Of a DNA stretch of 64,000 bases, positions 9,442-61,317 are shown piece by piece. The translations under genes were made by a program, and so were the position numbers. Each line of letters starts with the position of its first letter. Position 1 is the first letter of the stretch. Source of the DNA: a virus; IMG/VR virus record IMGVR_UViG_3300041964_000014, positions 32,001-96,000 of that record. One strand, given 5' to 3'. Below the pieces are notes generated by a model. That model was given only the letters and a program-made list of their open reading frames with translations. It did not search any database and was not told the DNA's origin.

Positions 9442-9525
9442 TTTTACTATGCATATAATAAAAGCCCTTAACCTGTAGAGAGTGGTTAAAGGCATGACTG
9501 AGGTTCTTTGTCTACTTACTTGATA

Positions 9526-10404: not shown

Positions 10405-10476
10405 AGGTAATTATCTAACTTGTTAACGCTATACTGAAATAGTAACACAAGGTAAGAACAGATAGGTACAGTTAAT

Positions 10477-10844: not shown

Positions 10845-10846
10845 TC

Positions 10847-11398: not shown

Positions 11399-11425
11399 GT
11401 AATTTAAAATATATCTATTATATAT

Positions 11426-11635: not shown

Positions 11636-11647
11636 TAGCTAATATTA

Positions 11648-12669: not shown

Positions 12670-12676
12670 ACACTTA

Positions 12677-13132
12677 TTATTTCGGACGTTTTATTTCGTA
12701 TTTATTAACCATATGCTTACCCGCATTGTATTGCTTAATTTCTTTACGTCTCGATAAGTATTTGCTAACCCCTAGAGCAACTCCTAATCCGGCTCCAGCT
12801 ACAGCGGCTTTAGGAGCGATATGTTTTCCAGCTTTAACAACCAAATCTTTCATATCTTTTGGAGAGATTTGTAACTTAACATTTTGTTTTTTAGCTTGGG
12901 ACATACCTTGCGCTAATGCTAATCCGGTTAAACCTGCTGTGCCGACTACAGCTCCCGTTGCTGCACCTACCACAGTTCTCTTTATTACAGGCTCCCTCAG
13001 TGTGACATTACGTTTACCTGTCTTAGTATTAAGTTCTCCCTTAAGAAATTTATTCAACTTACTTTGTCTTTTCTTTTTATCTTTAGAACCTTTTTTACGG
13101 GCAAACTGAGCTACATCGCTGAGGTAATACAT
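12677..13132 (-). CDS. basic glycine-zipper leader-family protein
   Basis: likely start MYYLSDVAQF|ARKKGSKDKKKR at 13132. Confidence 0.75.
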   Translation of the reverse strand: MYYLSDVAQFARKKGSKDKKKRQSKLNKFLKGELNTKTGKRNVTLREPVIKRTVVGAATGAVVGTAGLTGLALAQGMSQAKKQNVKLQISPKDMKDLVVKAGKHIAPKAAVAGAGLGVALGVSKYLSRRKEIKQYNAGKHMVNKYEIKRPK

Positions 13133-13351: not shown

Positions 13352-14281
13352 ATGTTAGAACCTAGTTATAGCTTTAGTTTCGATGACGATTTAAAGTTAT
13401 CATATGCATATGAAATAACAATGTTAGACGCTAATATTTCGGGTAGTGAATTGTTAGGCGGATTATTTCCTCGAGGAAAAGTAAGCAGCTTAGTAGCTGA
13501 AGGCGGAGTAGGGAAAACTTTTGTGCTGGTAGCTAGTAGTTTGGCTGTCACTAGCAATCAACCGTTTTTACCAGATTCGGATAGTACCAACCAGCTCAAA
13601 GTATTACTAATAGATACGGAAGGCAGATTAAGGGAGTTTGTTAGACGTGTAGATATATTCAACGGTAATCGAGCTAACTACTACACTCCTAAGCATCCTC
13701 TAGAAATATGTACCTTTTCTAACGAAACAGATAGAGTAGTAATCGAAAAGACAATAGTAGCTAAAGACATTGGGTTAGTTATAGTAGATAGTTTTGCTGG
13801 TTTTAGTAATGTAGACGAAAATACTAATGCAGTATTGCCCGCACTACAATGGCTTAGTAGTTTAGCACTTAAATACAATACTGCAATTGTATTTACTCAA
13901 TTAGTTAATAAGTCCGAAAACAAAAATAACCGAATTACAACTAAAAGTGTTAGGGGATTTAGTGGTATTACACAATGGTGTGAAATGGTATGGGCATTAG
14001 ACAAACCTACTGCCGATAAAACTATGCGGAGATTGTATCAGATTAAAAATAACGTTACAGAAGAAGATCCCACTGATTATTTATTTAAGATTCAAAACAA
14101 TCAGATACTATGGCAAACAACGAATAACACTACTAAACATCAGAGGCGTTTTGAATTAATGAGTAATAATCCTAAACTGTCTAATAAGGAAATTGCTAAA
14201 CTAATTCAACAAGAAGAACCCGATATGAAATTAGGAAGTATTGAAATGTGGATAAGCCGTAATCGTAATAAGAGTAACTAG
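13352..14281 (+). CDS. RecA-fold AAA_25 (RepA-like) ATPase/helicase
   Basis: Walker A AEGGVGKT, LLIDTEG, Walker B LVIVDS, RGFSG motif. Confidence 0.8.
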   Translation: MLEPSYSFSFDDDLKLSYAYEITMLDANISGSELLGGLFPRGKVSSLVAEGGVGKTFVLVASSLAVTSNQPFLPDSDSTNQLKVLLIDTEGRLREFVRRVDIFNGNRANYYTPKHPLEICTFSNETDRVVIEKTIVAKDIGLVIVDSFAGFSNVDENTNAVLPALQWLSSLALKYNTAIVFTQLVNKSENKNNRITTKSVRGFSGITQWCEMVWALDKPTADKTMRRLYQIKNNVTEEDPTDYLFKIQNNQILWQTTNNTTKHQRRFELMSNNPKLSNKEIAKLIQQEEPDMKLGSIEMWISRNRNKSN

Positions 14282-14785
14282 ATGATCTACTTTATAACAG
14301 AAGAAGGTAATTTAGATTATATTAAAATAGGTTTTACAGATAATGAGGATGTTAGGTTACGTATTGCTACTTTACAAACAGGTAATCCACGTAAACTAAT
14401 ATTAGTAAAAGCTATTGAAGGTACGTATGAACATGAACAAGCCCTACATTTGTTATTTGCTAATGATAAGATAAGGGGTGAGTGGTTTATTTACTCAGAA
14501 GATATTAAACGGTATTTAGCCACAACTCCAGATCTACCTCCATATAGAAAACCATATCAAAAGCTTGGATTAACTGCGACTATTATGTTAATGGAGGAAC
14601 TTAATATACATACTCTGTACACATACCACTACGGACTTAAATCAGTACTTGTAGATGGCAGACCCTTAGATCCTAAATTCGATAGTATGGATTTTAGATA
14701 TAAGAGTAAAGTAGAAGTTAGCTATAGAGTATTCCATGAAGCTTGCGAGTATTGGGCAATAAAAAATACGCCAAAGACTGAGTAA
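14282..14785 (+). CDS. T5orf172/MUG113 (GIY-YIG-like) domain protein
   Basis: IYFI...IKIGFT...RIATLQTGNP...EQALH...RGEWF. Confidence 0.85.
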   Translation: MIYFITEEGNLDYIKIGFTDNEDVRLRIATLQTGNPRKLILVKAIEGTYEHEQALHLLFANDKIRGEWFIYSEDIKRYLATTPDLPPYRKPYQKLGLTATIMLMEELNIHTLYTYHYGLKSVLVDGRPLDPKFDSMDFRYKSKVEVSYRVFHEACEYWAIKNTPKTE

Positions 14786-14814
14786 CTTAAAGTTATTACT
14801 AATTATTTCGGATA

Positions 14815-14847
14815 GACCTTCTTTAGTTATACGGGAGGTTTTTTTTT
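14815..14847. terminator. probable intrinsic terminator between convergent genes
   Basis: accttct...gggaggt stem followed by a long T run. Confidence 0.5.
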
Positions 14848-16459
14848 AATTAAACAAACTCGTATAATAAGTCCCACTACTATTAATCAACCGCACATCA
14901 AACAAATCAATAGGCGATTCCACTCGATTCGCTTCCGCCTCAATAGTCGTATATTGCTTCAACGTTTGCCCATACTTCGCCAAATACAGTAGTGCATAAG
15001 CTGTCGAATCCACGGCATCATCGTGTTTAGCTTTTGGGAACATTAGTAACTCATTCTTGAATTCCCGCACCCAACTCTTGCCTTTATTCGATGGCGCAGG
15101 AAAATATATATTACCAGCCTCAAATTCAGGTGTACAAGCTATAAAGCGACTTTCTTTGTCACCTCCATAATCTTTAGGCTCCATTGGTATTAAGCCGCTC
15201 ACATGACGTTGCAAGGTATCTATAGCCGCCTGTCCATTGCTTTTCTTTTCAATTAGTATTGCCCTAATCTCTGGATACTTCAACTTAAAAGAAACAATAG
15301 CCTCAATCTGTTGTGGGAATGTTAGTTTTGCCCTAATACAATCTACCAAGTATCTCCGACTACCGACTTTGCCCCACACAGTTCCGACACAATAGTCATT
15401 CTTATTACTATTAGCTAAATCCCACGACGCTACCAATATGTCGAAATGATCTGGGAGTCCCGCATCAGAATACTCATTTATTTGTTCGGACTTGACATAC
15501 CCCCCACCTTTCGGGACTGGTTGTTGTTGGAACTGGCTAGCCCATCTCCATTCACCTTTACGTTTTTCTTTAGCTACCGTTTCCTCACTCATTAGGTTGG
15601 GGGCTAATAACTCTCCCGGTTCACGGCGGGGATCTTCAAAGCCTAGCGAAGTAGTATAAGTACGCTCCGGATCGTATTCAATTGGTAGTGCAAAGTAATC
15701 CCAACCACTATCCTGCGACAACACACGCCCAATTAAATCGTCTTCTGCCAGTCTCTGATGCACAATCAACTGTGTAAAGGTCTCAGGAGTCTCCCAACGT
15801 GACGACATAGTATCGAAGTACCAATCACTCACTTTGTCTTTAGATACCCTTGAATGAGCTTCTAGAGCTTTGTGGGGGTCATCTATGATTAGTGTGCGAC
15901 AACCTTCTCCCGTACCTTTACCTTCAATAGATGTGGCTAATCTAAAGCCTCCTTTATCGTTTTCATAGCGAGACTTTTGGTTAGTATCGTGCCGCAGTTT
16001 AAATAATCGTCCCCACCTGTTTTGAAACCATGTTGTATTAATTAATCTACGGCTAGCTACTGCATCTCGCACAACCAAACTTTCACCATAACTCGCGGTA
16101 ATAAAAGTATGTGTAGCATCTTGTATCCAGCACCATACCGGAAACGCCACACTACATATTGTGGATTTTGCATGACGTGGACTTACGGCTATGGCTAGTT
16201 TTTCAATTTGGCGAGTACGTAATGCCATTAAGTGTTCACAAATGGCATCTACGTACCAGTTCTCTTTAAACTCCCCTCGTGCTATGTGTTGCCAGCTAGC
16301 TACTAGAAAATGATATAAATTAGCTTCTGCTAGTATTGTTAATTCTTCTTCTAGTAATACCTCTAATTCCGATTCTTCGTTAGTACTGTTATTTTCTAAC
16401 TTAGCTATTTCAGCTTCAATTAGTTGTAGTTCTTTTAATAACGCATCTTTACTAGCCAT
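14846..16459 (-). CDS. terL: terminase large subunit
   Basis: SPRHAKST Walker A, LIIDDPH Walker B, QRLAEDDL, SWD...DY and HDDAVDS RNase H-like nuclease motifs. Confidence 0.95.
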   Translation of the reverse strand: MASKDALLKELQLIEAEIAKLENNSTNEESELEVLLEEELTILAEANLYHFLVASWQHIARGEFKENWYVDAICEHLMALRTRQIEKLAIAVSPRHAKSTICSVAFPVWCWIQDATHTFITASYGESLVVRDAVASRRLINTTWFQNRWGRLFKLRHDTNQKSRYENDKGGFRLATSIEGKGTGEGCRTLIIDDPHKALEAHSRVSKDKVSDWYFDTMSSRWETPETFTQLIVHQRLAEDDLIGRVLSQDSGWDYFALPIEYDPERTYTTSLGFEDPRREPGELLAPNLMSEETVAKEKRKGEWRWASQFQQQPVPKGGGYVKSEQINEYSDAGLPDHFDILVASWDLANSNKNDYCVGTVWGKVGSRRYLVDCIRAKLTFPQQIEAIVSFKLKYPEIRAILIEKKSNGQAAIDTLQRHVSGLIPMEPKDYGGDKESRFIACTPEFEAGNIYFPAPSNKGKSWVREFKNELLMFPKAKHDDAVDSTAYALLYLAKYGQTLKQYTTIEAEANRVESPIDLFDVRLINSSGTYYTSLFN

Positions 16460-16461: not shown

Positions 16462-17283
16462 TTAATTAGATACCTTCATTAAACTACCCAATTTATCCAA
16501 CACTTTAATAAAGATGTTAGTACTCTCAATATGTGGCACTAAATGGCTTTCAATTGTTGCCACTAATTCCTCAATCTTACGGTTAATACTACGTACTTTA
16601 TCCAAGCTATTGTATTGAACAAATACAGCCCCAATATCTCGTTCTTCTTTGTCTACATTACCTCGCAACAAAAAACAGTAGTATCCTTCCACACCCATAC
16701 GTAACATACGTTGTTTACTAGTACTACTATTTTTAGAATCTCCAAAACTATTAGGGGTTATAAATACATAGTTTGTGGGTAGTAATTCCTGAAACTCCTC
16801 GTTATCATAAGCTTTCTTTTTTACTAGTGCCAAATCTTCGGCATACAAACTAAGCGGTATTTCCCTCAAATTAAACGCTACTGTAGCTACCCCATTATCT
16901 ACTGTTTCATGTGTGATAGTTAGTTTGCTATAAGAGTATCCCCCGTAATAGTTCTGCCCGTTATGAAACTGAGCAATTAATACGCGACTAGCACAGCTTT
17001 CAGCTAGTATACGCCCCAACAGTGAATTGATATGGTGTTCTGTTTCGACAGGTAGTGCCAACGATCTTTTGGCTGCCGATAACTTTGGTTGCAATATGTT
17101 TTTACTTACCCAACCCAACACCAACAGCGAAACTAACCCTAGCGTTTGTCCCCCCACAACTATTAACTTGTCTTTGATTGGGGCATCGTCTTGTGAATTT
17201 GGTGGTACTGTTATAACAGAAGCCCCGCTTTTGTCTTGTTTAATTATATTGGTGTTGTCATTCGCTAATATCATTTGGCTCAC
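16462..17283 (-). CDS. single-TM protein with GAF-like domain (possible T4 gpT-like holin)
   Basis: one hydrophobic helix then SRVLIAQFHNG...KLTITHETVDNGV...IGAVFVQY; holin call is inference. Confidence 0.4.
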   Translation of the reverse strand: MSQMILANDNTNIIKQDKSGASVITVPPNSQDDAPIKDKLIVVGGQTLGLVSLLVLGWVSKNILQPKLSAAKRSLALPVETEHHINSLLGRILAESCASRVLIAQFHNGQNYYGGYSYSKLTITHETVDNGVATVAFNLREIPLSLYAEDLALVKKKAYDNEEFQELLPTNYVFITPNSFGDSKNSSTSKQRMLRMGVEGYYCFLLRGNVDKEERDIGAVFVQYNSLDKVRSINRKIEELVATIESHLVPHIESTNIFIKVLDKLGSLMKVSN

Positions 17284-17998
17284 TTAAATCCTGCATTTGT
17301 GATTCTATTTGACGTTTTTTCTTCATCAAGTCTTCCAACACCGATTGGCGACTTTCCACTGATTTTAATAAGTTATTAATACGTTGTTTACCTTGTTTTT
17401 TACCTGCTTTCTTATTGTTTTCGGCTTGCTCTAATTGTTGCAATTCTAATAGCTCATTGACAATCTTTTCAGCGTTTATAGGTTCTCCCATTATATTTCG
17501 GACTAGTGTATGCCCTTTACTAATTAGTCCTATAGCAGCCTCCAAGTCTTTGATTTTATGCGAACGAGCAAATGGGGATGCCTGAGTAATATCTTCTTCC
17601 CCCGTTGTATCGGATAACAATGCTTCGGTGTCTAGCCATATATCTAATTGCTCGTATATCTTATCGAGCAGTATAAGGTTTTTAGCGTCGTAACGAGCGC
17701 TTTCACTCATTAGTGAGTTGACTTTTTCTTGCCCAATACGTCGCTTGATTTTTTGCTTGTACAGCTCCCTACGTTCTACCCATTTCTCTGTACGACATTT
17801 CTCAGCTAACCGCCTTACATCTATTTCGTATTTCTTAGCTAAATCAGCTTGAGAAGGGAAATACATATTGCGGGTGCCTGTATTGCTGTCTACTGTTATG
17901 CATCCGTGTATGTATTCTGCTTCGATGCTTAACCAGTCTATCTGACGCCGTGTAGACGCTGATCCTGGTTTGTGCTGTATCTGTCGGATATCGTGCAT
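17258..17998 (-). CDS. terS: probable terminase small subunit
   Basis: IDWLSIEAEYIHG...SQADLAKKYEI...EKWVERR HTH pattern; upstream of terL. Confidence 0.65.
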   Translation of the reverse strand: MHDIRQIQHKPGSASTRRQIDWLSIEAEYIHGCITVDSNTGTRNMYFPSQADLAKKYEIDVRRLAEKCRTEKWVERRELYKQKIKRRIGQEKVNSLMSESARYDAKNLILLDKIYEQLDIWLDTEALLSDTTGEEDITQASPFARSHKIKDLEAAIGLISKGHTLVRNIMGEPINAEKIVNELLELQQLEQAENNKKAGKKQGKQRINNLLKSVESRQSVLEDLMKKKRQIESQMQDLSEPNDISE

Positions 17999-27629: not shown

Positions 27630-28376
27630 ATGACTGAGTTTAGTTTGGATTTGGCTAAAGAATTAGTAGCATCTAACGATGAGTTTCCTGTTGATTTTGA
27701 GCAAGCATATGTTTGGTTAGAGTACTCTCGTAAGGATGTTGCAAAACGAGCGTTTTTAAATGTAGGCTTTATTGAGAATGTCGATTTCAAGGTTTTCCAC
27801 ACTTCTGCGGAAAACTCCCAAGGTGGTCGTCCCACTGAGATTATTAAGTTGACAGTAGATTGTTTCAAGCAATGGGGAATGGTATGTGGCAACGATAAAG
27901 GAAAACAGATTCGTTTGTATTTCCTTGAATGCGAAAAGGTAGCCAAACAAGTAACTAATATCCCTGCCGAAATGTTGCAGTTTATGCAGACTATGCAATC
28001 AGAAATGCGATTATTAAGGGAGCGTACTGAGAAACTAGATATTGTACAAGAAGAAAAGCAGCAACTAGCGTCAGAACTCCAAGACCGTAACACACTACTC
28101 AAACTGCTGGATGAAGCGGGCTACGAACACCAGGGTTGTTACAACATTGTCAATCAAGCCGTAGTTTCCCCAAAACAACGACTATTCACAGCTTTTAAGT
28201 ACCTTGATCATATGGGATACGATACTGGGTTTGCCAATATACTTGCACGTCGAGCAGCTGCTTTCTACCGTACTAGTAAGAAAATCGAGCCGCACCGTGA
28301 TGCAGATAATAATCTGCTGTTTGAGGAAAGCTATTTAGCAGAAGTATATGAAGCACTCAAGCAAGTAGACGAATAG
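27630..28376 (+). CDS. antirepressor-type protein (AntA-like N-terminus)
   Basis: FPVDFEQAYVWLEYSRKD...ENVDF...GGRP...LTVDCFK...GKQIRLYFLECEK. Confidence 0.75.
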   Translation: MTEFSLDLAKELVASNDEFPVDFEQAYVWLEYSRKDVAKRAFLNVGFIENVDFKVFHTSAENSQGGRPTEIIKLTVDCFKQWGMVCGNDKGKQIRLYFLECEKVAKQVTNIPAEMLQFMQTMQSEMRLLRERTEKLDIVQEEKQQLASELQDRNTLLKLLDEAGYEHQGCYNIVNQAVVSPKQRLFTAFKYLDHMGYDTGFANILARRAAAFYRTSKKIEPHRDADNNLLFEESYLAEVYEALKQVDE

Positions 28377-32505: not shown

Positions 32506-33423
32506 ATGACCACTACTATGCCTAAATTAGGGCTGTGTTGTTTAACAGATGATAAGATAATTAGTTATCGCACAATAACTAAGACGAGGTTTGAGAGACT
32601 TAATTACAGCGAACAATATACTGCGCTATATAAGATATATAGCGACAATGTAGCTATGTTTGCTACAGCTATTAAATACTGTAGTGATAACGGTATTAAA
32701 ATGTACCGTGTAACAAGCCATCTATTTCCCTTTTACGAGAGTACCGTAGGAGCAGATATTTTAGATCACTTAACCGATAAGTTGCTAGATGTAGGTAATT
32801 TAGCGAGAGCATTAGATATAAGGGTAGTAATGCACCCAGATCAATGGGTAGTTCTTAGCTCCGATACTAAAGAAGTTGTGGAGCGTAGTATCCAGGAACT
32901 ACAACATCACGCACGAGTGTTTGATGATATGGGATTATCTCAGACACACTATAACTTGCTTAACATTCACGGGGGTAAGAGAGACAGGCTTAATAACCTG
33001 ATAAAGGTTATCAATGATTTACCTACCAACGTTAAGTCCCGACTCACATTGGAGAATGACGAAAACTGCTACAGTGTCAGAGAGTTGTATAAGGTACACG
33101 AGCTGACCAACATACCCATACTCTTTGATTTCCACCATTCAATTATTAATAACAAATTGTGCAGCTATGATCACAAGAAGATTACCGAAGAATACCAAGT
33201 TGCAGCCTCCACATGGTCTCAGCACAGTAACGTCACTACTCATATATCTAATGGCGCTGCTGATTTGTTGGATAGCAAGCATAGTGATTATATTGTTAGA
33301 TATCCAGAGTTACTACTCACAGTACCGTGGGTAGAGGTTGAGGCTCGGAAAAAAGAACTAGCATTGGTACAATTGAAACAAAGTTTAGAAAACTATTATG
33401 GACATGACCACACAAACAATTGA
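32506..33423 (+). CDS. uvsE: UV damage endonuclease
   Basis: LGLCC, YRVTSHLFP, MHPDQWVVLSS, NIHGG, LTLENDE, FDFHH, HSDY, EVEAR.KE. Confidence 0.92.
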   Translation: MTTTMPKLGLCCLTDDKIISYRTITKTRFERLNYSEQYTALYKIYSDNVAMFATAIKYCSDNGIKMYRVTSHLFPFYESTVGADILDHLTDKLLDVGNLARALDIRVVMHPDQWVVLSSDTKEVVERSIQELQHHARVFDDMGLSQTHYNLLNIHGGKRDRLNNLIKVINDLPTNVKSRLTLENDENCYSVRELYKVHELTNIPILFDFHHSIINNKLCSYDHKKITEEYQVAASTWSQHSNVTTHISNGAADLLDSKHSDYIVRYPELLLTVPWVEVEARKKELALVQLKQSLENYYGHDHTNN

Positions 33424-34448: not shown

Positions 34449-34799
34449 ATGGATACGAATACTGCGATTGAAATCTATCACAAAGATGTTAGCTACAGTT
34501 TAGTTGTAGCTAAACGTCCTATCACAATGATGTTCTTGTATCGGATCGTTAGGTTCGCATACAATGAATCATTATACAGCTACGTCCGAAATAATCAGAG
34601 CGATAATTCTGATTACTACATTCCTGGTTTAGGGGCATTTCAATTGCAAGCACTAGATCCGGGTACTGACATCACAGTCGTTCGATTAGGTGGTCATCCT
34701 GTTTCTCTTGCACGGTACTTAACACCTATGCTAGGATATACTCCAGAACTCTGGAGTGAGGAACAAGTGTTTGAGCAATTTTTGGCTCAAACCGCATAG
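34449..34799 (+). CDS. hypothetical protein upstream of the Ubl cassette
   Basis: ORF. Confidence 0.6.
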   Translation: MDTNTAIEIYHKDVSYSLVVAKRPITMMFLYRIVRFAYNESLYSYVRNNQSDNSDYYIPGLGAFQLQALDPGTDITVVRLGGHPVSLARYLTPMLGYTPELWSEEQVFEQFLAQTA

Positions 34800-34851: not shown

Positions 34852-35235
34852 ATGGCTAACACTAACTTTTTCGGTCGTTTCATCAATCGTGCAGCTGAAG
34901 TTGTTTTTGGTGCTAATGAATCTGATGTACAACAACCAACACTGTCTGTCGAATCATTGCAAGTTGAGCAAATCGAAAAAGATGACGCGGCTAAAACAGT
35001 TACTTTACGGGCACAAGTCGGACTTACTCCAATTGAACTTACAGTCCCCGTGGGTACAACTTACTTGGAAATGATTGAGCTTTCCAAAAAGCAAGTGCCG
35101 GGATTAAATGTCTCAGCTGAGTCCGTGACTATCTTAAATACGGATACTAATGTAACGGTGCCCAACAATGCAATGACAACTCCAGTACAGGAAGGTAACT
35201 ACTCCTTCGAGTCTACTAGCGGTACTGCGGGTTAG
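34852..35235 (+). CDS. ubiquitin-like (beta-grasp) protein 1
   Basis: beta-beta-alpha-beta pattern (VTLRAQVG/PIELTVPVGTT..E) ending YSFESTSGTAG-stop, like PRTRC protein C (..GTKG); adjacent to JAB/E2/E1. Confidence 0.75.
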   Translation: MANTNFFGRFINRAAEVVFGANESDVQQPTLSVESLQVEQIEKDDAAKTVTLRAQVGLTPIELTVPVGTTYLEMIELSKKQVPGLNVSAESVTILNTDTNVTVPNNAMTTPVQEGNYSFESTSGTAG

Positions 35236-35262
35236 AGATTGATTTAGTTCCGTCTACTGATT

Positions 35263-35295
35263 GAGATACAGGGGATTATACATCTCCTGTATTTC
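35263..35295 (+). terminator. hairpin after Ubl1
   Basis: gagatacagg...cctgtatttc followed by T-rich tail. Confidence 0.55.
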
Positions 35296-35346
35296 TTGTT
35301 TGTTTGTATAACGTCCACATTCAACTACAAAAGAACGAGAATCACT

Positions 35347-35712
35347 ATGGCTATCAATAACTTCTTCGGTCGCTTCGTTTCCAACTTCGCCCCTAAGTCC
35401 AACGAAGTCTCATTGCCTGTAGAGTCAGTAACTGCCGATATCGAAACAATCTCCGAGAACAAAGAAGATAAGACTGTGACTGTCTCGGTTACTTATAAAT
35501 TCACCAGCGAGACATTTACGGTGGCTGTGGGAACGACAATGAACAATTTGTTCAAGTTAATTGCTGCTAAGTTCTCTATTGGCTCACTCGATGCAGTGGC
35601 TATTCTTAATACTGAAACCAATAGTGTTGCAAAGCTAGCCGATGTGCAGGAAACCCCGATCACCGAAGATACTTCTCTGTCTATCGAAGACACCAGTGGT
35701 ACAGCTGGTTAA
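35347..35712 (+). CDS. ubiquitin-like (beta-grasp) protein 2
   Basis: paralog of Ubl1: MAINNFFGRF, VGTT, ILNTETN, ends IEDTSGTAG-stop. Confidence 0.75.
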   Translation: MAINNFFGRFVSNFAPKSNEVSLPVESVTADIETISENKEDKTVTVSVTYKFTSETFTVAVGTTMNNLFKLIAAKFSIGSLDAVAILNTETNSVAKLADVQETPITEDTSLSIEDTSGTAG

Positions 35713-35755
35713 TCTGGTAGCAATCAGATAGAGGATAAAGGCGCGTAGTTAATCC

Positions 35756-35786
35756 GGTCTGGGAGTGTAGTGCTTCCAGACCTTTT
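35756..35786 (+). terminator. hairpin plus U-tract after Ubl2
   Basis: ggtctgggag...cttccagacc tttt. Confidence 0.6.
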
Positions 35787-35808
35787 CTGTAATGTTTAGG
35801 AGACACAA

Positions 35809-36714
35809 ATGAGACTTATTAACGGAATGCGTGTTCGGCTAGCTACGGAATATCCGTATGGTAGTTATATCGCCAGAGATACTACCCCCGAAGAAGGTGG
35901 GCTAGAATTCGAGGCTTTGAATTATCTAGACCCTAATCCCGATCTACCGAAAATCCCCCAACAACTGTTTCGTAAGCTGAGTAAGTTCTTCTACGATTAC
36001 GCATCTAAATCTCTGGAGGTTCACGCACGAGTAGTATATAACCCTCGTGATAAAAGTTTCCGGGTGTTTGTCCCAACACAAACAATTGCCGGAGCTAGTG
36101 TTGACCACTTTGAATACTCCCATGCCGTAGACCTGGAGACGGGAGAATCAGTATCTCTTCCACACAAAGACTACGCTACTCTGTGGCAGTTTCATGTGCA
36201 TCCGTTTGCAATGCCGGGACCTTCTAGTATCGACGATAACGGTTTTCCAAACCAGCCAGGTACTGGAGAACTTGATCGCCCCGGTGGATATGGGATATTC
36301 AGTTGTTGGAATAAGAACAAAGACGGATATGCTATTTTCACCCTTCGCTGTAACGTAGTTGTTTCGGACGGATTTAAAACCCGTAACAAGAGACTAGACA
36401 TTGCTACTAGCGATGTAGTTGAAGGTGTTGAAGATGGTGAGCAGATACTTGTATACAATGTGCCTTACAGTGAATTAGCACATAGTGTTGTGTCTAGATA
36501 TATACCAAAGCCTCAAGCGAAAGTAAAAGGCGGCGTTAATCTACTTAACGTCCAGTATCTGCCTAAGAATTTTGTTTCCCAAGCACAAGCATCAGACTAT
36601 CTAGCGTTAGATAGCGTAATACACTCTCACTCTTTAGAGGAAGTGTTAATGGCACTTCAGATTAAGTACGACAAGGCTCAAATAGAAACAGCACTGAATA
36701 CAATGTTTGGCTGA
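35809..36714 (+). CDS. JAB/MPN+ (JAMM) metallo-isopeptidase
   Basis: upstream Glu (SLEV), VP.Q...GASV, then FHVHP....PSSIDD = HxH-x7-S-x2-D. Confidence 0.85.
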   Translation: MRLINGMRVRLATEYPYGSYIARDTTPEEGGLEFEALNYLDPNPDLPKIPQQLFRKLSKFFYDYASKSLEVHARVVYNPRDKSFRVFVPTQTIAGASVDHFEYSHAVDLETGESVSLPHKDYATLWQFHVHPFAMPGPSSIDDNGFPNQPGTGELDRPGGYGIFSCWNKNKDGYAIFTLRCNVVVSDGFKTRNKRLDIATSDVVEGVEDGEQILVYNVPYSELAHSVVSRYIPKPQAKVKGGVNLLNVQYLPKNFVSQAQASDYLALDSVIHSHSLEEVLMALQIKYDKAQIETALNTMFG

Positions 36715-36719
36715 TCAAT

Positions 36720-37493
36720 ATGGTACAAGTTACTACTCCACCTAACATACAAGCTATTGTGACTGTATCTGATTCTGATGAAGATACTGTTGCAAGAGGG
36801 ATGATTCTATTGTGTGATGAAATTGATGTGCGCCTACAAGTCCGCCGTGGTGTACTGTCGGAGGCAATATACTACGAGCGTTGCAGAAACTGCAAAACCA
36901 GGGCACAGAATAAGTGCATTGGGGGAATGAAAATAATCAAAGACCATCTGTGTCCCGAAGGTGTAACTGCAAGATCCGAAATAGCATATATCCCCAAAAG
37001 ATTACCTCAGCACATTGTGTACATTGATGGATCTCTGGAATACTATCTCTTTGTAGTTGAAGGGGAGATAACACCGGAAGGGAATCTCAGGGTATTTCCC
37101 ATGATGCTAGGTAACATAACTACATACGGCTCACTTTGTTCTGGAAATATGAGAACAAGGAGATGGAATTTCGCTGAATCATATGCAGCTATTTGGCAGC
37201 TGCTATGGACTGGCGATTACAACTATACAGAGCATTCTATTGCTCAGCTAATCGAGAACTGGTCTCCGGAATGGCAGAAAGAAAACTACAGATACGATGA
37301 TCTAGATACACTGTACAAAGACTTGTTTAGTTTAGTGGGAATACGTTCCTTAGATCAGACAGTAATAAGGCAGCCGGGTACTTACGATATATACAATGCT
37401 CGTGAGCTTTACTCAAGCAAAGTATCGGAACTGATAAAAGACGGATATGAATACTTGAACTGCCGAGTGCTAGGCAAAAGGATAGATAGCTAA
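36720..37493 (+). CDS. prokaryotic E2-like protein (Prok-E2 D / PRTRC B-like) with N-terminal Cys cluster
   Basis: PMMLGNITTYGSLCSGN matches N(V/I)xxxGx(I/L)CxG; position between JAB and E1. Confidence 0.65.
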   Translation: MVQVTTPPNIQAIVTVSDSDEDTVARGMILLCDEIDVRLQVRRGVLSEAIYYERCRNCKTRAQNKCIGGMKIIKDHLCPEGVTARSEIAYIPKRLPQHIVYIDGSLEYYLFVVEGEITPEGNLRVFPMMLGNITTYGSLCSGNMRTRRWNFAESYAAIWQLLWTGDYNYTEHSIAQLIENWSPEWQKENYRYDDLDTLYKDLFSLVGIRSLDQTVIRQPGTYDIYNARELYSSKVSELIKDGYEYLNCRVLGKRIDS

Positions 37494-38380
37494 TGCAACT
37501 CAATCAAACAACTTTGTATGTGGTAGGTTGTGGTGGAACGGGAGGTCGTTTGCTAGACTTACTAGCGGACTATTTTGCCTTTAGCCACAACTACCCTAAT
37601 CGTATAGTTCTAGTAGACGATGACAAAATCGAAGAACGCAATGCCGAAAGACAGGTGTTTGACAGATTAGACGCAGGTAGATATAAAGTAGAAGTACTTA
37701 AAGACCGATTTATTACAAAGTCCGGGTTTGGTCGTGTAGAAGCGCTTCCCGTAAAGTGGACACCTGAAACACTTCCCCATGATTTGGGGAAAATGTCGGA
37801 GGCAGGAGCTTCTATCAGTTTGTTTATCTGCATAGACAATGCAAGGGGGCGTAACGCACTGTGGTCGTATATAGTGGGATATTACGACTCAGTTAAGCGG
37901 GAGTACGAGAAAGCCGAAGTTGCATACAAAGGTAACTTTCTTATCGTAGATGGTGGGAATGGCACGTATGATGGTCAGGTAACTACTTGCTTACGGGTGC
38001 GCTACGAAAACTTTGACTGCATTTTAGGGCAAGACCCTAGAGTTCTTTTCGAGAACGTTCGTAACGCAGATCCCCGAATCACGGGTTGTGCCGCTGCCGA
38101 GGGCGATGACGTTGCCCAAACAGTGATGGCAAATATGCAAGTAGCCACACTTATGTTTAGTGAATTTGTTAGTGCAATAACCACTCACAAATTTCAACCG
38201 TTAATCAAGTTTGATTTACAGCAACGTCGAATGTTACCTGTCGGCGCAATGTGCGACTTGGGTGCTGAATACACGGCATTCATCACCGAAAAAACAGCCG
38301 CACTAGAAGCAGCCGCTAACACTCAAATAGTTGAGACTGCTGAAGCTACGACCGAAACAGTAATTGAAGTCACCGTTTAG
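37493..38380 (+). CDS. E1-like ThiF/MoeB adenylating enzyme (PRTRC ThiF-like)
   Basis: VVGCGGTGG, DDDKIEERNAERQ, GRYKV, CIDN..GR, DGGN....GQV, candidate catalytic Cys in TGCAA, Q...AN. Confidence 0.9.
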   Translation: MQLNQTTLYVVGCGGTGGRLLDLLADYFAFSHNYPNRIVLVDDDKIEERNAERQVFDRLDAGRYKVEVLKDRFITKSGFGRVEALPVKWTPETLPHDLGKMSEAGASISLFICIDNARGRNALWSYIVGYYDSVKREYEKAEVAYKGNFLIVDGGNGTYDGQVTTCLRVRYENFDCILGQDPRVLFENVRNADPRITGCAAAEGDDVAQTVMANMQVATLMFSEFVSAITTHKFQPLIKFDLQQRRMLPVGAMCDLGAEYTAFITEKTAALEAAANTQIVETAEATTETVIEVTV

Positions 38381-38997
38381 TGAGAAATACCATGAACCAA
38401 GAATTGTACACCAGACTAATCGACCAAGGAATGAATGAAGAAGCTGCTAGTGCAATAGCCGCTGACTTTAGCCAAGTGACTCGTGCAAAGAAACTACCTA
38501 AGCAAACACTATCTACTTGGTCAGACGAGTATGTTGCGGCATCGGCTAAGTTGCGTTTACAAGCTATATCTTCTTTAATCGCAGTCTTAGGATTGCAACC
38601 ATCTCCTCAAATGGTAATGGAAGTAAAAAACTTTGAACCCGAAACCATTGAAATACTACGACGACTAGGGGCTTTAATGGAGAGCAAATGGATAACAATG
38701 CGAAACACAGGAGGCAAGTTGCAAGAACTAGCAAATGAGCTAAATGGCAATAAGGGTAAAAAGCCTATAGTCCAAGCCTCCGAAGATGTTGACGAGATGT
38801 TGAACTTAGTATCTTCCGTGGTAATACCAACAAGTGAAATAGAGGAGTCCGAAATAAAAAAGGAGGAGGGTGATTTGGAGTCTGTTGATGCTTTGGCACT
38901 AGCAGAACTTGAGGATAAAACCGATACACCTGAAACCTCGGAGATGTTAGGTATGGGCGCGTTGCCGGACGATTTCGACGTGTCTAAGTTCTACTAA
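38380..38997 (+). CDS. hypothetical helical protein with acidic tail, coupled to E1
   Basis: start overlaps the E1 stop; followed by hairpin 39012-39045. Confidence 0.7.
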   Translation: MRNTMNQELYTRLIDQGMNEEAASAIAADFSQVTRAKKLPKQTLSTWSDEYVAASAKLRLQAISSLIAVLGLQPSPQMVMEVKNFEPETIEILRRLGALMESKWITMRNTGGKLQELANELNGNKGKKPIVQASEDVDEMLNLVSSVVIPTSEIEESEIKKEEGDLESVDALALAELEDKTDTPETSEMLGMGALPDDFDVSKFY

Positions 38998-39061
38998 ATT
39001 TCAGTAATAGTGTGGGGCTAATTAGTATAAGTAGTTAGCCCCCACTAATACCCTTAACTAT

Positions 39062-40516
39062 ATGGTTGATAAGTTAGTGTTAGAGCAGTATCTTTTAGAT
39101 ACTTTAAAACAAAATAAAGAACTGTTTGATTTAGTAGTAAATAAACAATACATACTATACGGAGAGTATTTAGGCACATTACTGGTTAATAAAGTAATGC
39201 AGCTAAATTATTCGTTACCTAAGCCTACCTTACTTCGTTTAGATCCTACTAATAAAACTAATGGATATTCAGAGGTAATAGAATATCCTACATACGTTAT
39301 TAGTATTACTTCTAATATAGGTTTACTGGATAGTTGTACTAATTTTAATAGTTGCTTTATTACTAGTACTGATGTTGTTATTTCAGATAGCTTTGTAGAA
39401 CTACTAAATACCAAACAATTAGAGATAGTTAATATTAATCCGCTATCGAAAGCTTTAGCAGAGTTAGTTTATCTAGCCGATAGGTACAAGGGATACTTAT
39501 ATGCTAATATTACCAAAGCTATTGCAATGGCTAAAGATATTAGCAGGTTAATGGCTTCTCCAGAATGCAGTTTAATTACTTCAAACACTAACGCTGGTAT
39601 ATTAAAAACACTAACCGATATTGAAATTAAATGGGTTACTTTAGATGTCTACAAAGACTCGTTAGTACCTTTAGTCGTGCTTCCTGAAGTATCGTTATTA
39701 CCGGATAATATTTCCAAATACTCTAAAAGCCATCTTGCCCATGATGATACTTTATCTCAATGTTATTTAGCATTAGCTAATTGCTTATACGGTAACGGTG
39801 TTAAAAAGTCTGCTAGAGAAAACAAGTTAATAGTATTAGAATATCCTGAACTATACCCGTATGTTGTAAGTAACCTTAGTTACACAGATAATCTACCTAA
39901 CAATTGGAAAGCCAAACTACCTTACTTAAACAAGCTTTTAGCAGAACACAATGTAAGGCTATTTTTTAATAAGCTTAATTTAGCAGAACAAATACAGTTA
40001 CTAGATGAGTTGCGTGGATTAATTAAACAATACGGCTTATGGGTAATTGGTTTATTAGAGCAACAATCTAAATACGATAAAAAAGAGTTAGTTAAACTAA
40101 TAGAGTTTAAAAAACTAGAAAATAGCAAATGGTTAGTTCCTCCGTTTAAGCTCCCGGAAATATTCCCATTTGGACTACATAAAACATGGAAAATAGTTGA
40201 GTTAAATACACGCCAACTACTAATACATGAAGGCGAATACCAAGGGCATTGCGTAGGAGGATACAGTGTATCTCCAGCGCATAGAATCTTCTCATTGAGG
40301 AAAGATAAGCTTCGCTATACTCTAGAGATATATTACGATACCTACAAACACAAGTGGATAACAGGACAAGAGCGAGGAAAACATAATTCCTTGCTAGAAA
40401 GTATTGAACCAATCACACAACAAGAACTACGGATTATAATTCCGTGGTTACTCTCAGTACTACCTAGGGTAACTGTTTCTCCGAGTACAACAAGCAACGA
40501 CTACATATACTTTTGA
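39062..40516 (+). CDS. protein with C-terminal PcfJ-like domain
   Basis: IVELNT..LLIHEGEYQGHCVGGY...IFSLR...YTLEI...Q.RGKHN. Confidence 0.75.
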   Translation: MVDKLVLEQYLLDTLKQNKELFDLVVNKQYILYGEYLGTLLVNKVMQLNYSLPKPTLLRLDPTNKTNGYSEVIEYPTYVISITSNIGLLDSCTNFNSCFITSTDVVISDSFVELLNTKQLEIVNINPLSKALAELVYLADRYKGYLYANITKAIAMAKDISRLMASPECSLITSNTNAGILKTLTDIEIKWVTLDVYKDSLVPLVVLPEVSLLPDNISKYSKSHLAHDDTLSQCYLALANCLYGNGVKKSARENKLIVLEYPELYPYVVSNLSYTDNLPNNWKAKLPYLNKLLAEHNVRLFFNKLNLAEQIQLLDELRGLIKQYGLWVIGLLEQQSKYDKKELVKLIEFKKLENSKWLVPPFKLPEIFPFGLHKTWKIVELNTRQLLIHEGEYQGHCVGGYSVSPAHRIFSLRKDKLRYTLEIYYDTYKHKWITGQERGKHNSLLESIEPITQQELRIIIPWLLSVLPRVTVSPSTTSNDYIYF

Positions 40517-58042: not shown

Positions 58043-61000
58043 ATGGACTTATTATCACAAGAGAGTTACCTAAAGTACTATCAGTTAATCAATCCGCAGT
58101 ATATTAGCTGGGACTTTTATTCGCAGTATTTAGACAAAGAACCCCCATTTGGTGAGTTAGGGGCAATTGTATTCCTACGTACATACAGTCGATTTGTGCT
58201 TGAACTCAAGCGACGCGAGAAGTTTGCCGAGACTTGTTTACGTGTTGTGGAATACAGTTTATCGCTAGATACTGTTAGCGATACTTACGCTCTCCGGGAG
58301 GAAGCCGAGCAGTTATTTGATTGTTTATTTAGTTTACGGGGATTTGCTTCGGGACGCTCGTATTGGGTAGCCGGAACTGAGCAAACAAAACGATGTGGTT
58401 CTGCTACGTGGAATTGTTGCTTCCGTACAATGGATAGCATCTCCGCTTTTAGTGAAGTATTTTATTGGTTGCTACTAGGTGCTGGTGTTGGTTTCTCTGT
58501 AGAGAATAAGTATGTCAGCAAGCTGCCTACGTTTAATACTCAAGTAGAAATTAAACATACCCCATACATTTTTAATCAAAGTTATTACCCTAATACTCTT
58601 ATTTATCCCAATGAATCTCGGCTGGATGGCTATACTCTTACAGATACTGATCTAGTTGTTTCGGACGCAGAGTTTCTCCAACATTGGGGATTTCAGGATG
58701 AAGAACACTTTACCGTAATAGTTGGAGATAGTAAAGAAGGCTGGTGTACAGCTTTAAGAGTGTTATTGTATTTACTTACACTACCCAACACTAAGTCAAT
58801 AACATTTAACTATAATAACGTTCGCCCTAAAGGAGAACGTATTAAAGTATTTGGTGGACGTGCTAGTGGTCATCAGAATCTACAAGATGTATTGCAACGT
58901 ACTCACGACATTGTTTGCGAGAGTAAAGGTAAGCTTAATTCTCTTAACGTACTAGATGAAGTTAATACTATAGGTGTTGGAGTAGTTAGTGGCGGTGTTC
59001 GTCGTACTGCTGAAATTGCGTTAGGGGATGCGGATGATACTTATTTTATTGAAGCCAAACAAGATTTATGGACTGATGAGTCAAAGGCTAAGTATAGGAA
59101 TATTCGAGTTATGTCTAATAATTCAGTAGTTTTCTATGAAAATCCTGGACTTGAAAAGATACGTGAAATTGTACGTAGAATTCAAACCAATGGTGAACCG
59201 GGCTTTTCTATTGTAGGCAATGCTCAAAAACATGATCCTAATATAAAGGGTTTCAATCCCTGCCATGAAGCCAGTCTTGATTCTCATCAATCCTGCAATT
59301 TAGTGACCGAGAATCTAGTAGCTCATATCTTTGATGGACTACTTGACTATGCTTTATTACAAGATACTTTACGCTTGATTACTCGTGTTGCGTGTCGTCA
59401 AACTACAGCTAGTCAGTGGCATCCACAATGGGACGCAGTACAAAAACGAGACAGACTAATCGGTGTATCGATGACTGGAGTTGAGGATGCGTTTGATATT
59501 CTAAACTGGGGCGATGAACAAAAAGCTGATTTCTACAACTGGGCAGCAGATATTGTGCGGGATGAGGCAGATAAGTACAACGCTCATCTAGGTATTGAGA
59601 AATCTAAGCGGGTTACTTTGGTTAAACCTGAAGGCTGTGAAGTAATTGAGAGTTTGCGAGTCTTTAACGAAGGTATCCTTCGCATAGATGAAATAGACTC
59701 CAATATATCTAATAAAACGGGATTTTACAAAAATACTGTTTCTTTGACAACAACACACTGGAATGATAAGGTTAGTAGCTTATTTAATAATGGGTTATCT
59801 GATATTGCAGAAATTACTCTAAATAATGGTCGCAAGTTGAAGACAACAGTCGAGCATCGATTTCATGTGCAAGGAACATGGAAACGGGTTTTAGATCTAA
59901 CTATAGGGGATGTATTAGATGTAGAATTAGGTAGTTATCAAAATAAAAACAATACCCCAATGTATGTTCCTACTAATGGAACAGGACTTAAGAAGGTTTC
60001 TCTACCTACACGAATGTCAGAACCTTTAGCTTGGTTTTTAGCTGCTATTTACGCAAATGGCAGCACTTCTACAAGGGGATATGTAGATTTCTGTAGTGGA
60101 CATTTGTTAGTTTGCACTAAATTCAAACAGATCGTTAAGCAATTATTCGGGGTAAATGTAGAGTTCAAAAAAGACTCTATAAAGGATATGTATCGCACTC
60201 GTATTAATTCTGTCGATATTTGGCAATATTTGAAAGAAAATAACTGTTTAAAAAGCGATCAGTTTGATCGTGTACCGCTTGTTGTAAGAAAGTCTAGTCG
60301 TCAGAGTGTATTAGCTTTTGTGGCAGGCTATCTAGACACCGATGGCTGTTTTAAAAATAAAACTTGCGCGATTACATCCACGAAACTAGACTTTGCCCGA
60401 AATCTACAAGAAGTGTGCGAAGCCGTTGGATTATCATTCAGTGCTTACGAAACTAAACGAGAAACTACAAAAGGAGAATGTCATTATATAGATTTGCAGT
60501 TATCCCGTACTTTTAGCACTAAAGATGCAATTGATTATATTAATCAAAACTGCATCAAGGCACAGGAGCATCCAATCCTTTACTCCAGTAAATCACATAA
60601 AAATCCCTATAAAGTAAAATCTATTACTTTACTGGATAACCTTGAAATGACTTATGATATCGAAGTAGAAAATTCACACTGTTACCTAAATGGGGGAATT
60701 AAATCGCATAACACATTAAGTCAATTGCCCACAGTATCGAGTGGTATTGGTAAAGCTTATGCCCCCTATTATCTTCGCCGTATAAGATTTTCTAGTCTCG
60801 ATCCACTAGCATTAGCACTGTATCAGCAAGGTGTGCCTGTAGTACCTGAGAATGGTCAGGGAGACGATTTATTTAGCGAAAAGTGCAATACATGGGTATT
60901 TACTTTCCCAATAAAAACAAACGCTAAGATCCGTGCTATTGATGAACCTATTGAGGAGCAATTTAAGCGGTACTTGCTGGTACAAAACACATATGTGCGC

Positions 61001-61317
61001 GAAGGTTATAATGCGTCTAACACAATGACAGTAGCTCCGATGAGTGGGACAAAGCCGCTGAATTAGTGCATGAACATTGGGGTTCAATTATTGGTATTAC
61101 TTTTCTACCCCGTTTTGATCCACGAGAAGGAGGTAAAGCTGCTTATCCTAATATGCCGTATGAGCCTTGCGAAGAACACGAGTATATCGAGTACTCGAAA
61201 CAACTACCTAAGTTAACTGAAAATGATTTAATAAGGTTAGTAGCAAGCTTTGAACAACAAGCAGAAGAACAAACTTTAGACGATGCTTGTTCGACAGGTG
61301 CGTGCCCCGTCCGCTGA
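58043..61317 (+). CDS. nrdJ: class II (AdoCbl-dependent, RTPR-type) ribonucleotide reductase with intein; one-base frameshift near 61037
   Basis: RTYSR, WNC, GAGVGFS, VGDSKEGW, FGGRASG, GGVRRTAEI, NGEPG, FNPCHE, VKPEG/TLSQL, terminal CSTGACPVR. Confidence 0.92.
59636..60712 (+). mobile_element. intein with LAGLIDADG homing endonuclease (359 aa)
   Basis: KPEG|CEVIES...TYDIEV..SHCY..GGIKSHN|TLSQL; LAWFLAAIYANG and FVAGYLDTDG blocks. Confidence 0.92.

Follow-up and report, generated by a model that had tools for sequence, protein, structure and literature searches.

A predicted ubiquitin-like conjugation cassette, related to PRTRC systems, in the early gene block of a large uncultured phage

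The closest known kind of cassette to the one described here is the PRTRC system of NCBIfam (TIGR03734-TIGR03742), which corresponds to operon type 6d of Iyer, Burroughs and Aravind (2006; PMC1779556, section 14). An operon of this type encodes a JAB protease extended by an N-terminal domain, an E1 and an E2 that each stand alone, a small ubiquitin-like protein (Ubl) ending in Gly, and an alpha-helical protein; the E2 carries a conserved Cys with a His downstream of it. PRTRC genes were annotated earlier in prophages, namely a Phocaeicola vulgatus prophage and Burkholderia phage AB2/BgVeeders33 (bioRxiv 10.64898/2026.10.01.756045; PMC13366799), so that carriage by a phage is not in itself new; these papers only name the genes or presume a partitioning cassette. 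In literature searches, which covered few subscription journals and are weak evidence in this respect, we found no function assigned to PRTRC and no discussion of a phage-encoded Ubl conjugation pathway. Bil (type 6e, BilABCD), a bacterial system directed at phage tail proteins (bioRxiv 10.1101/2023.09.04.556158), and Cap2/Cap3 of type II CBASS are mechanistic cousins from a different family. Here we describe a cassette of the PRTRC kind in bases 32001-96000 of IMG/VR virus record IMGVR_UViG_3300041964_000014, a stretch of 64,000 nucleotides that we call the window and whose first base is position 1 throughout.

The cassette occupies window positions 34852-38997 and encodes, all on the plus strand and in this order, Ubl1, Ubl2, a JAB protease, an E2-like protein, an E1 and an orphan protein. 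Its gene set and motifs, the fold of the Ubl, the conservation of the proteins and their synteny are matters of observation. We consider it probable that they make up a working, phage-owned Ubl conjugation module of the PRTRC/6d branch, in which the modifier would be relayed as a thioester from Cys199 of the E1 to Cys140 of the E2-like protein and on to protein targets, the JAB protease reversing the modification. The E2 step is the least secure part of this proposal.

The cassette and its likeness to known systems

The cassette consists of the following features.

34852-35235, plus strand: Ubl1, 127 amino acids (aa), AlphaFold2 (AF2) beta-grasp model over residues 44-127, ending in TSGTAG
35263-35295, plus strand: terminator-like hairpin behind Ubl1, with a 14-bp stem and then a T-rich tail, found by consensus scan
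35347-35712, plus strand: Ubl2, 121 aa, paralog of Ubl1 with an ATG start, the same N-terminal motif and a TSGTAG end
35756-35782, plus strand: terminator-like hairpin after Ubl2, 12-bp stem followed by TTTTCT, found by consensus scan
35809-36714, plus strand: metalloprotease of the JAB/JAMM kind, 301 aa, extended at both termini and carrying a JAMM motif
36720-37493, plus strand: E2-like protein, 257 aa, with a sub-threshold match to Prok-E2_D and an invariant Cys140
37493-38380, plus strand: standalone ThiF-family E1, 295 aa, matching Pfam ThiF at 9.5e-16
38380-38997, plus strand: orphan, 205 aa (201 aa from the ATG at 38392), with a TAGTG overlap with the E1 stop
39012-39045, plus strand: inverted repeat rich in GC (GTGGGGCTAA...TTAGCCCCCAC) that follows the orphan and lacks a T-run, seen in the junction sequence

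An earlier note on this DNA had proposed the cassette, and every open reading frame (ORF) that it listed is present at these coordinates. Its tandem paralogs ending in TSGTAG-stop agree with our coordinates, ends and identity (Ubl1 and Ubl2 are 42% identical). The enzyme genes are tight or overlapping, as it had described, with a gap of 5 nt between JAB and E2 followed by a TAATG overlap of E2 with E1 and the TAGTG overlap of E1 with the orphan. An alternative TTG start for Ubl2 at 35296 was judged less likely than the ATG because the hairpin at 35263-35295 precedes it and the N-termini of the two Ubls align from the ATG. The terminator consensus scan of the region called 11 sites against 4.8 expected, with no call at the inverted repeat 39012-39045, which is a possible operon end. 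Such a layout would fit an abundant modifier followed by smaller amounts of the enzymes through read-through, the orphan being translationally coupled.

A regular expression for the JAMM motif matched 5 of the 1178 ORFs in 21 loci, and all five adjoin an E1 gene; with matches so rare and always beside E1 genes, the co-occurrence is not due to chance. The same can be said of the arrangement, since a related phage contig of 127 kb (L001), which is collinear with the window, has the whole gene set again in unchanged order.

PRTRC systems and the window cassette have in common a small Ubl of the beta-grasp kind that ends in Gly, an E1 (ThiF) and an E2 (Prok-E2_D type, with a conserved Cys) encoded as separate genes, and a JAB with extra N-terminal sequence, and both are carried on mobile DNA. 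PRTRC models gave the best NCBIfam matches of the E1 (PRTRC_ThiF, TIGR03736; E=4.2e-11, 42.6 bits) and of the E2-like protein (PRTRC_B; E=0.035, 13.4 bits), in keeping with the earlier view of PRTRC as a kindred cassette. However, all cassette proteins score far below the PRTRC cut-offs (144.75 and 131.45 bits for these two models), and the cassette has neither ParB nor a match to PRTRC C, D, E or F. PRTRC_C gave zero matches across the genome record, and no NCBIfam match to PRTRC D, E or F was seen at E<=0.1 among the seven cassette-region proteins scanned, which included the orphan and a PcfJ-like protein downstream of it. Further, the window Ubls are tandem, carry an N-terminal extension of ~45 residues and end in SGTAG rather than ...KG; a Cys4 insert is present in the E2, from which the conserved downstream His appears to be absent; the E1 is followed by an orphan specific to the clade; and the genes run JAB-E2-E1, unlike the E2-JAB-E1 and Ubl-E1-x-E2 orders of other cassettes. 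No homology between the orphan and the type-6d helical protein was detected, though it could be an analogue of it. Tandem N-extended Ubls, a Cys4-bearing E2 and the private orphan are proper to the window clade, which on sequence comparison appears to be a divergent, so far phage-only and ParB-less branch of PRTRC/6d lying outside formal PRTRC membership.

Bil has the same set of Ubl, E1, E2 and JAB deubiquitinase, but its E2 belongs to another family, that of the window being Prok-E2_D-like, and the PADLOC Bil models matched no cassette protein. CBASS type II Cap2/Cap3 shares E1 adenylation, relay through an E2 Cys and reversal by JAB; it differs in that Cap2 is an E1-E2 fusion, whereas the window E1 and E2 are separate genes, and in that its modifier is the C-terminus of a cyclase and not a dedicated Ubl. 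Pfam and PADLOC scans of the cassette's neighbours showed no CD-NTase cyclase and no effector family.

The modifier and its enzymes

Neither Ubl had a family match in Pfam, PHROG, NCBIfam or PADLOC. Five sequences could be aligned: the two window Ubls, the two of L001, and P0065 (119 aa, on a 958-bp contig), the only extra Ubl relative from large-database searches. All five carry an NFFxRF/KF peptide in their N-terminal part, then a linker that varies and is probably disordered, and finally the invariant SGTAG. In the AF2 model of Ubl1, residues 1-43 are disordered and a b-b-a-b-b-b core follows (pLDDT 63-79). When this model was searched exhaustively with VIA-align, all 50 of the matches listed were ubiquitin-like beta-grasp proteins (Z 7.2-9.6, with superpositions typically of ~2 A root-mean-square deviation over ~70 residues), including ubiquitin, ISG15, FAT10, MoaD and 8tyz_B, the Ubl of a bacterial E1-E2-Ubl complex, at Z 7.5. 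A Z near 8 is not decisive by itself for a small domain; the uniform match list is. Foldseek against the PDB gave zero matches at E<=0.001, its weak matches with good superposition being prominently MoaD, a ubiquitin variant, Ufm1 and SUMO. A search of BFVD with the Ubl model returned nothing useful, and profile comparison of the Ubl family with the small ...KKG proteins of other cassettes found no relation. Residues 44-127 of Ubl1 are thus modelled as a beta-grasp ubiquitin-like domain, the fold on which the earlier note had staked its reading of the small proteins. Both ORFs end in ...GTAG-stop, with the terminal Gly already exposed, as it had also pointed out.

P0065 ends in SGTAGI, one residue past the Gly that ends the other four Ubls. 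If real, this end would need C-terminal trimming and would make JAB a maturase in that relative; the extra residue could also be a contig-end artefact.

The E1 passes the Pfam ThiF model (58.1 bits, cut-off 28.1). Its motifs comprise a GxGGxG loop, D42/D44, N50/R53/Q54, K65, D153 and Cys199 in ITGCAA. In an alignment of 18 E1s drawn from every cassette type found, G12/G14/G15, D42/D44, N50/R53/Q54, K65 and Cys199 are invariant (18/18), and D153 and N156 nearly so. Cys199 lies 46 residues past the Mg-binding Asp, which we take to be roughly the position of the crossover-loop Cys of ThiF and MoeB. Its invariance and this spacing make the TGCAA cysteine, already singled out before, the best candidate for the catalytic residue.

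A complex predicted from E1 residues 1-262 and Ubl1 residues 44-127 reached an ipSAE of 0.82, the best control being 0.01; the same mark is reached by 58 of 80 solved complexes and by 2 of 110 mismatched pairs. The partners had pLDDT values of 84-85, and contacts agreed between runs to at least 94%. Ubl1 residues 120-127 are predicted to contact the GxGGxG loop (12, 14-17) and residues 154-157 and 185-189 of the E1. This supports a canonical arrangement in which the Ubl tail sits in the adenylation pocket, where the earlier note had expected the C-terminal Gly to enter; solved E1-Ubl complexes exist, and likeness to them may partly explain the score.

The JAB protein carries the motif E70...H129-x-H131-x7-S139-x2-D142, with ~60 residues ahead of the catalytic Glu. 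An exhaustive HMMER search found 58 relatives, and in an alignment of 52 JABs not only E70, H129, H131, S139 and D142 but also D143, E154 and R195 are invariant. Taken alone, the window JAB is below detection by Pfam, including Prok-JAB, and by PRTRC_A; among the 52 relatives, 14 match Prok-JAB and 6 match PRTRC_A. The family profile matches MPN/AMSH structures right at the JAMM motif. We assign the protein from these sequence features to the JAMM proteases of the Prok-JAB/PRTRC_A kind, as first proposed.

The E2-like protein is composed of a beta-rich N-terminal region, a C55-x2-C58-x7-C66-x11-C78 cluster and an N132-x7-C140-x-G loop (NITTYGSLCSG). N132, C140 and G142 are invariant in the clade, in the local context GS(L/F)CxG. 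The Cys cluster, which reads C-x2-C-x7-C-x10/11-C in the clade and lies ahead of a beta-meander, is probably Zn-binding. Against Pfam Prok-E2_D the protein scores 20.7 bits (E=3.7e-4), under the cut-off of 25. A hidden Markov model (HMM) built from 11 diverse cassette E2s and run against 306 ORFs ranked the window E2 first (E=0.0012), the L001 paralogs E2a and E2b coming second (0.018) and fourth, and local hhalign of the E2 family against the same 11 sequences gave E=2.7e-4 and a probability of 41.5%. In this comparison the conserved core of the diverse E2s, LY..P.PN-x7-C-x-G, aligns with GN-x7-C140-x-G of the window, a loop that recalls the HPN...Cys loop of classical E2s. The ESM Atlas model of the protein has a TM of 0.47/0.59 to a 'PRTRC system protein B' cluster, and its feature neighbours there (score 0.95) are mostly viral. 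Both L001 paralogs lack a Prok-E2_D match, PDB sequence and profile searches gave chance matches only, and large-database searches returned no relative besides the protein itself.

The E2 assignment, which depends on sub-threshold matches and one reciprocal profile test, is therefore the weakest component of the proposed set. The earlier call stood as to the conserved N-x7-C-x-G loop and the first rank with the 11-E2 model, and not as to the curated models, whose cut-offs the matches stay below. The family assignments suggested with it likewise held for the E1 through Pfam ThiF, while the E2 scores below the Prok-E2_D cut-off and neither the JAB nor the Ubls have a match of their own.

Relatives and genome context

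Close relatives are few. Among 5.8 billion proteins the E1 has three, at 55-66% identity. A single-sequence scan of viral contigs found zero relatives, and an alignment-based scan found L001, which encodes one of these three. There the order is UvdE, upstream gene, two Ubls ending in SSGTAG, JAB, two E2 paralogs, E1 and orphan, with ribonucleotide reductase (RNR) and other shared genes beyond, so that the survey of related phages asked for earlier places the cassette at the same genomic position. Identity to the window is 58% for JAB, 55% for E1, 36% for the orphan, 32-40% for the Ubls and 25-29% for the E2s. The Ubl pair of L001 is 74% identical and that of the window 42%, so that duplication or gene conversion has gone on within the lineages. 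In L001, four unrelated genes (5868-7386) stand between the Ubl pair and JAB, among them one for a DUF7736 protein and one for a 238-aa homolog (46%) of window 27630-28376; the Ubl and enzyme genes can hence be separated without loss of either.

Beyond this clade similarity drops sharply. A metagenome scan found distant E1s only. In ~185,000 prokaryote species genomes there was no close relative, the E1s being mostly 23-31% identical at best and two short partial matches reaching 35-42%; these distant E1s belong to cassettes ordered E2-JAB-E1 in Pleurocapsales cyanobacteria, Chloroflexota and Clostridia. Related cassettes also occur in prophage-like contigs of gut Firmicutes. Thirteen viral contigs carry the layout [~340 aa]-[small protein ...KKG]-E1-[~275 aa]-E2, where the E2 passes Prok-E2_D and matches PRTRC_B. 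The small proteins of this layout are 112-135 aa long and end in (Q/H)(H/F)KKG, the E1 is short (~221 aa) and the E2 has ~205 aa; examples are L006 285-3786 and L013 8276-12052 (in L002-L015), and also L040 (Anaerorhabdus furcosa, 4624-8091). The ~275-aa and ~340-aa proteins match no known family, the ~275-aa protein has no JAMM motif, and no JAB is evident at those loci. Two more contigs, L017 (1000-3076) and L021 (9054-10976), have JAB-E1-[93 aa ending in ...GKKG or ...GVKG]; their JABs are of the same family as that of the window and match PRTRC_A, and the cassette-E2 HMMs found no E2-like gene in these stretches.

In 50,697 deposited phages a nucleotide search with the cassette gave zero matches, and the E1 gave two weak ones only, one of them in Salmonella phage Arash:

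OQ632216.1 (L022), record positions 172824-180819, reverse strand, with locus coordinates 107-307, 1519-2274, 2261-3499 and 3499-4539: PRTRC-like set of Arash

This set includes an E2-like gp248c (PNQYGDGNMCVG loop), a Prok-JAB gp247c (1.4e-7) and a ThiF E1, gp246c (7.8e-15), plus an unannotated 66-aa ORF that ends in ...RRTGTKG and overlaps the annotated gp251c in another frame. Arash is a cultured lytic Salmonella phage described without lysogeny genes; mass spectrometry coupled to liquid chromatography (LC-MS) of its particle preparations detected gp246 and gp248 among 116 proteins, which include RNR and helicase, and the paper mentions neither ThiF nor ubiquitin (PMC10585845). We considered whether the 'structural protein' labels of these gene products reflect packaging of E1 and E2 in the virion and rejected it, since RNR and helicase are on the same LC-MS list; the detection shows expression only. 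Like the window cassette, Arash and the other phage-borne cassettes have a ThiF E1 with the Cys199 column, a JAB, a Prok-E2_D-type E2 with a PN-x7-C-x-G loop and a small protein ending in Gly (...KKG, ...VKG, ...GTKG). They differ in E1 identity (22-29%), in Ubl sequences that are not detectably related and in gene order, and have no tandem Ubls, Cys4 insert or orphan homolog. The earlier picture of such systems as mainly those of bacterial chromosomes and mobile elements must accordingly be widened, given the PRTRC genes annotated in prophages, the related viral cassettes and Arash.

The record itself is one 111,188-bp contig with a CheckV completeness of ~76%, and a scan of it showed tailed-phage gene content: the large terminase (TerL), exonuclease, primase, helicase, DNA polymerase and RNR. 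The terminase, from gene annotation, lies at:

14846-16459, minus strand: large terminase

The other genes named are all on the plus strand. Structural genes occupy the minus strand up to ~18 kb, and replication and accessory genes the plus strand from ~18.3 kb. The cassette lies inside this plus-strand early/replication block, among early genes of a phage as the note had it. The closest TerL among deposited phages is just 38% identical, which makes the lineage an uncultured one, poorly related to deposited phages. No integrase was found in the 111 kb of the record, tyrosine integrase being among the families looked for.

An 8-mer, GTCCGAAA, occurs 60 times in the window on both strands against 1.16 expected from shuffles, and its copies frequently form close inverted pairs in intergenic gaps. 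Three copies (34584, 36362 and 38847) fall in the cassette, a density equal to the genome-wide level. As this over-represented word of the phage is as dense there as elsewhere, the cassette is resident in the phage genome and no recent import.

The orphan consists of a conserved N-terminal part and an acidic C-terminal tail. Its homolog stands right after the E1 in L001 (29% identity across the whole alignment and 36% within its best BLASTP segment). It matches no family in Pfam, PHROGs, NCBIfam or PADLOC, it scores no better than chance in the ESM Atlas (0.83), and hhalign against the extra proteins of type-B cassettes gave nothing. Directly upstream of the Ubl pair lies a further gene:

34449-34799, plus strand: 116-aa gene with a 38% identical homolog in L001

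The homolog (L001 4504-4848) has the same position and shares motifs and a LAQxA C-terminus, and the 116-aa gene, which had no Pfam or PHROG match, may be linked to the cassette. The gene for a UV damage endonuclease of the UvdE type (window 32506-33423, Pfam 3e-59; L001 homolog 56% identical) stands 2-3 kb upstream of the cassette. Just past the orphan, at 39062-40516, a 484-aa protein weakly resembles PcfJ (E=1e-4, below cut-off); the 20.7-kb L001 stretch encodes no homolog of it, so it probably does not belong to the cassette.

Two observations concern genes farther away. The window RNR (58043-61066) is encoded by one ORF of 1007 aa, in which residues 540-764 have a weak match to a terminase-type PHROG, and its L001 homolog is in two ORFs (14143-15399 and 16802-17863) with ~1.4 kb between them, which suggests an intein or homing-element insertion in one or both genes. 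At least nine head-module ORFs begin with a common leader, M(x)(L/Y)(F/Y)(I/L)SD(I/V)...(N)FARKKGSKDKKKR; they lie at window 434-13132 on the minus strand (for instance 2628-3863, 3860-4264, 10847-11398 and 12677-13132) and also outside the window at genome positions 14431, 24651 and 26536. A regular expression loosely grouped this leader (LFISDI...NFARKKGSKDKKKR) with the NFFxRF peptide of the Ubls. The Ubl N-termini (MANTNFFGRF..., MAINNFFGRFVSNFAPK...) are only loosely like it and the motifs differ, and we claim no link.

Proposed mechanism and competing explanations

By analogy with E1, E2 and JAMM enzymes, Bil and CBASS Cap2/Cap3, we propose the following pathway, target choice and biological role. 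The two hairpin-terminated Ubl genes would supply abundant modifier with its C-terminal Gly pre-exposed. The ThiF-type E1 would hold the beta-grasp domain, take the SGTAG tail into its ATP site and adenylate Gly127, after which the Ubl would be transferred to Cys199 as a thioester and onward to Cys140 of the E2-like protein, which would place it on lysines of target proteins. Because no E3 is recognisable, the fast-evolving, Cys4-insert E2 is the likely specificity factor, with the coupled orphan as a possible adaptor. The JAB metalloprotease would strip the modifier again, giving a reversible mark or recycling the Ubl. Given its place in the early/replication block, the cassette most probably works within the infected cell to the phage's benefit, on host proteins or on rival genetic elements. 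The roles that the earlier note had offered as possibilities (tagging of host proteins, jamming of a host Ubl defence, two separate signals, the orphan as substrate or adaptor) are all compatible with these results, which favour none of them over the others.

Tentatively, one may go further and picture a large-phage lineage that runs a complete, reversible Ubl pathway early in infection and tags proteins of the host or of rival elements, with the Zn-finger E2 serving as an E3-less specificity factor and the NFFxRF peptide as the signal delivered, for example a docking or degradation motif; the E2 would then have been duplicated in one lineage beside a duplicated Ubl. We hold this fuller version to be possible and far from established.

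Several points weigh against a working conjugation module. The E2-like protein scores under the curated Pfam and NCBIfam cut-offs, and its AF2 model, from a three-sequence alignment, has a mean pLDDT of 39.6 and a best structural match at Z 3.3, too low to show a UBC fold. An HMM from type-B viral E2s alone misses the window E2, and hhalign of the E2 family against these is not significant (E=0.26). The downstream His of type-6d E2s appears not to be conserved in the window clade: type-B E2s have YTH/YSH where the clade has an invariant DYN(Y/F), and a His near this site in the window E2 is missing from the L001 paralogs, all in a region of uncertain alignment. Confidence in the Ubl model is moderate (mean pLDDT 59, core as given above, from five sequences), and the close clade has four members, with DNA sequence for two. 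There is no recognisable E3, target or substrate, the orphan being without a recognisable family, and biochemical conjugation by any PRTRC/6d member was not found in the literature searched.

The alternative that survives best keeps the same biochemistry and assigns it to exclusion or defence: like Bil, the module would mark the structural proteins of phages or satellites that compete with the resident phage, or else it would set off an abortive response, and the resident phage would gain from the protected infected cell or lysogen. Three other Iyer operon types are anti-phage, namely Bil (6e; bioRxiv 10.1101/2023.09.04.556158), CBASS Cap2/Cap3 (6b; PMC10097602) and 6A-MBL, the last on the basis of an NCBIfam model named 'anti-phage 6A-MBL system'. 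The kindred cassettes in prophage-like contigs of gut Firmicutes would suit such a role, as would the fast evolution of E2 and Ubl and their duplication in L001, as in an arms race, and PRTRC protein B is reported to be a recurrent mutational hotspot in the Phocaeicola prophage (bioRxiv 10.64898/2026.10.01.756045). However, PADLOC models match nothing but the E1, and this partially: its 'E1-E2' models cover the first ~85 residues (best 1.2e-8), that is, the Rossmann nucleotide-binding region. The cassette sits in the collinear early/replication block of two distantly related large phages and not in a variable island, the 111 kb hold no integrase, and Arash, with a related cassette, is described without lysogeny genes (PMC10585845). 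We thus regard a defence role as rather unlikely and favour a pro-phage role in the infected cell.

It is also conceivable that the E1 alone activates and attaches the Ubls, JAB reversing this, and that the product of 36720 is a Zn-binding accessory or a target. E1-only attachment of Ubls is known from archaeal SAMP/UbaA and Thermus TtuB/TtuC. For SAMPs, E2-free conjugation is established (PMC4443979), and the sub-threshold matches and poor AF2 model of the E2-like protein would agree with such a system. Against it, the invariant Cys of the N-x7-C-x-G loop aligns with PN-x7-C-x-G of Pfam-positive Prok-E2_D proteins, nearly all of the related cassettes examined have an E2-like gene beside those for E1 and JAB, and 26 of the 30 nearest ESM Atlas clusters of the protein fall in a set where 19-30% of members carry Prok-E2_D. 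We judge E2-independent attachment improbable.

Two further explanations are very unlikely. If the small proteins were ThiS/MoaD-type sulfur carriers or MccB-type substrates, with no protein tagging, one could account for the sole PDB sequence match of the E1 (MccB, E=1e-4, Rossmann region alone), for MoaD among the structural matches of the Ubl and for the weak scores of the NCBIfam ThiF and MoeB models on the E1. PRTRC_ThiF scores ahead of both, though; the E1 has no C-terminal rhodanese by Pfam; domain searches found no MoaE, ThiG or rhodanese in the record; the E1 is tightly coupled to JAB and to an E2-like protein whose Cys is conserved; and the 45-residue N-terminal extension of the Ubls with its conserved peptide is unlike sulfur carriers. 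The other explanation, a module that helps to partition or maintain the element as an episome, as assumed for plasmid-borne PRTRC, has in its favour the PRTRC name ('ParB-related, ThiF-related cassette'), the usual genomic company and the term partitioning cassette used for Burkholderia phage AB2 (PMC13366799), but ParB_N had zero matches at E<=0.01 in the 111-kb record (~76% complete), no cassette protein matches PRTRC D, E or F, the related cassette of Arash is in a lytic phage, and a partition role is just an assumption for PRTRC itself. The lack of ParB and of sulfur-transfer genes nearby had been remarked on before, and it extends to the searches of the whole record.

Bacterial Ubl conjugation has lately been shown to be a host antiviral weapon in Bil and CBASS Cap2/Cap3; here it may be the virus that does the tagging. 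That two distantly related large phages keep a full Ubl-E1-E2-JAB set in their early block, at the same syntenic position, has been little appreciated. The well-conserved E1 and JAB, set against the fast-diverging and duplicated E2 and Ubl, point to where specificity would reside, and any arms race with it. With small proteins, predicted catalytic residues (E1 C199, E2 C140, JAB HxH and Ubl G127) and a cultivable relative in Arash, the system is a tractable test case. The cassette suggests that phages can run a protein-tagging pathway of their own; if true, this would be the bacterial-virus counterpart of the ubiquitin machinery encoded by eukaryotic viruses and would give PRTRC/6d its first function.

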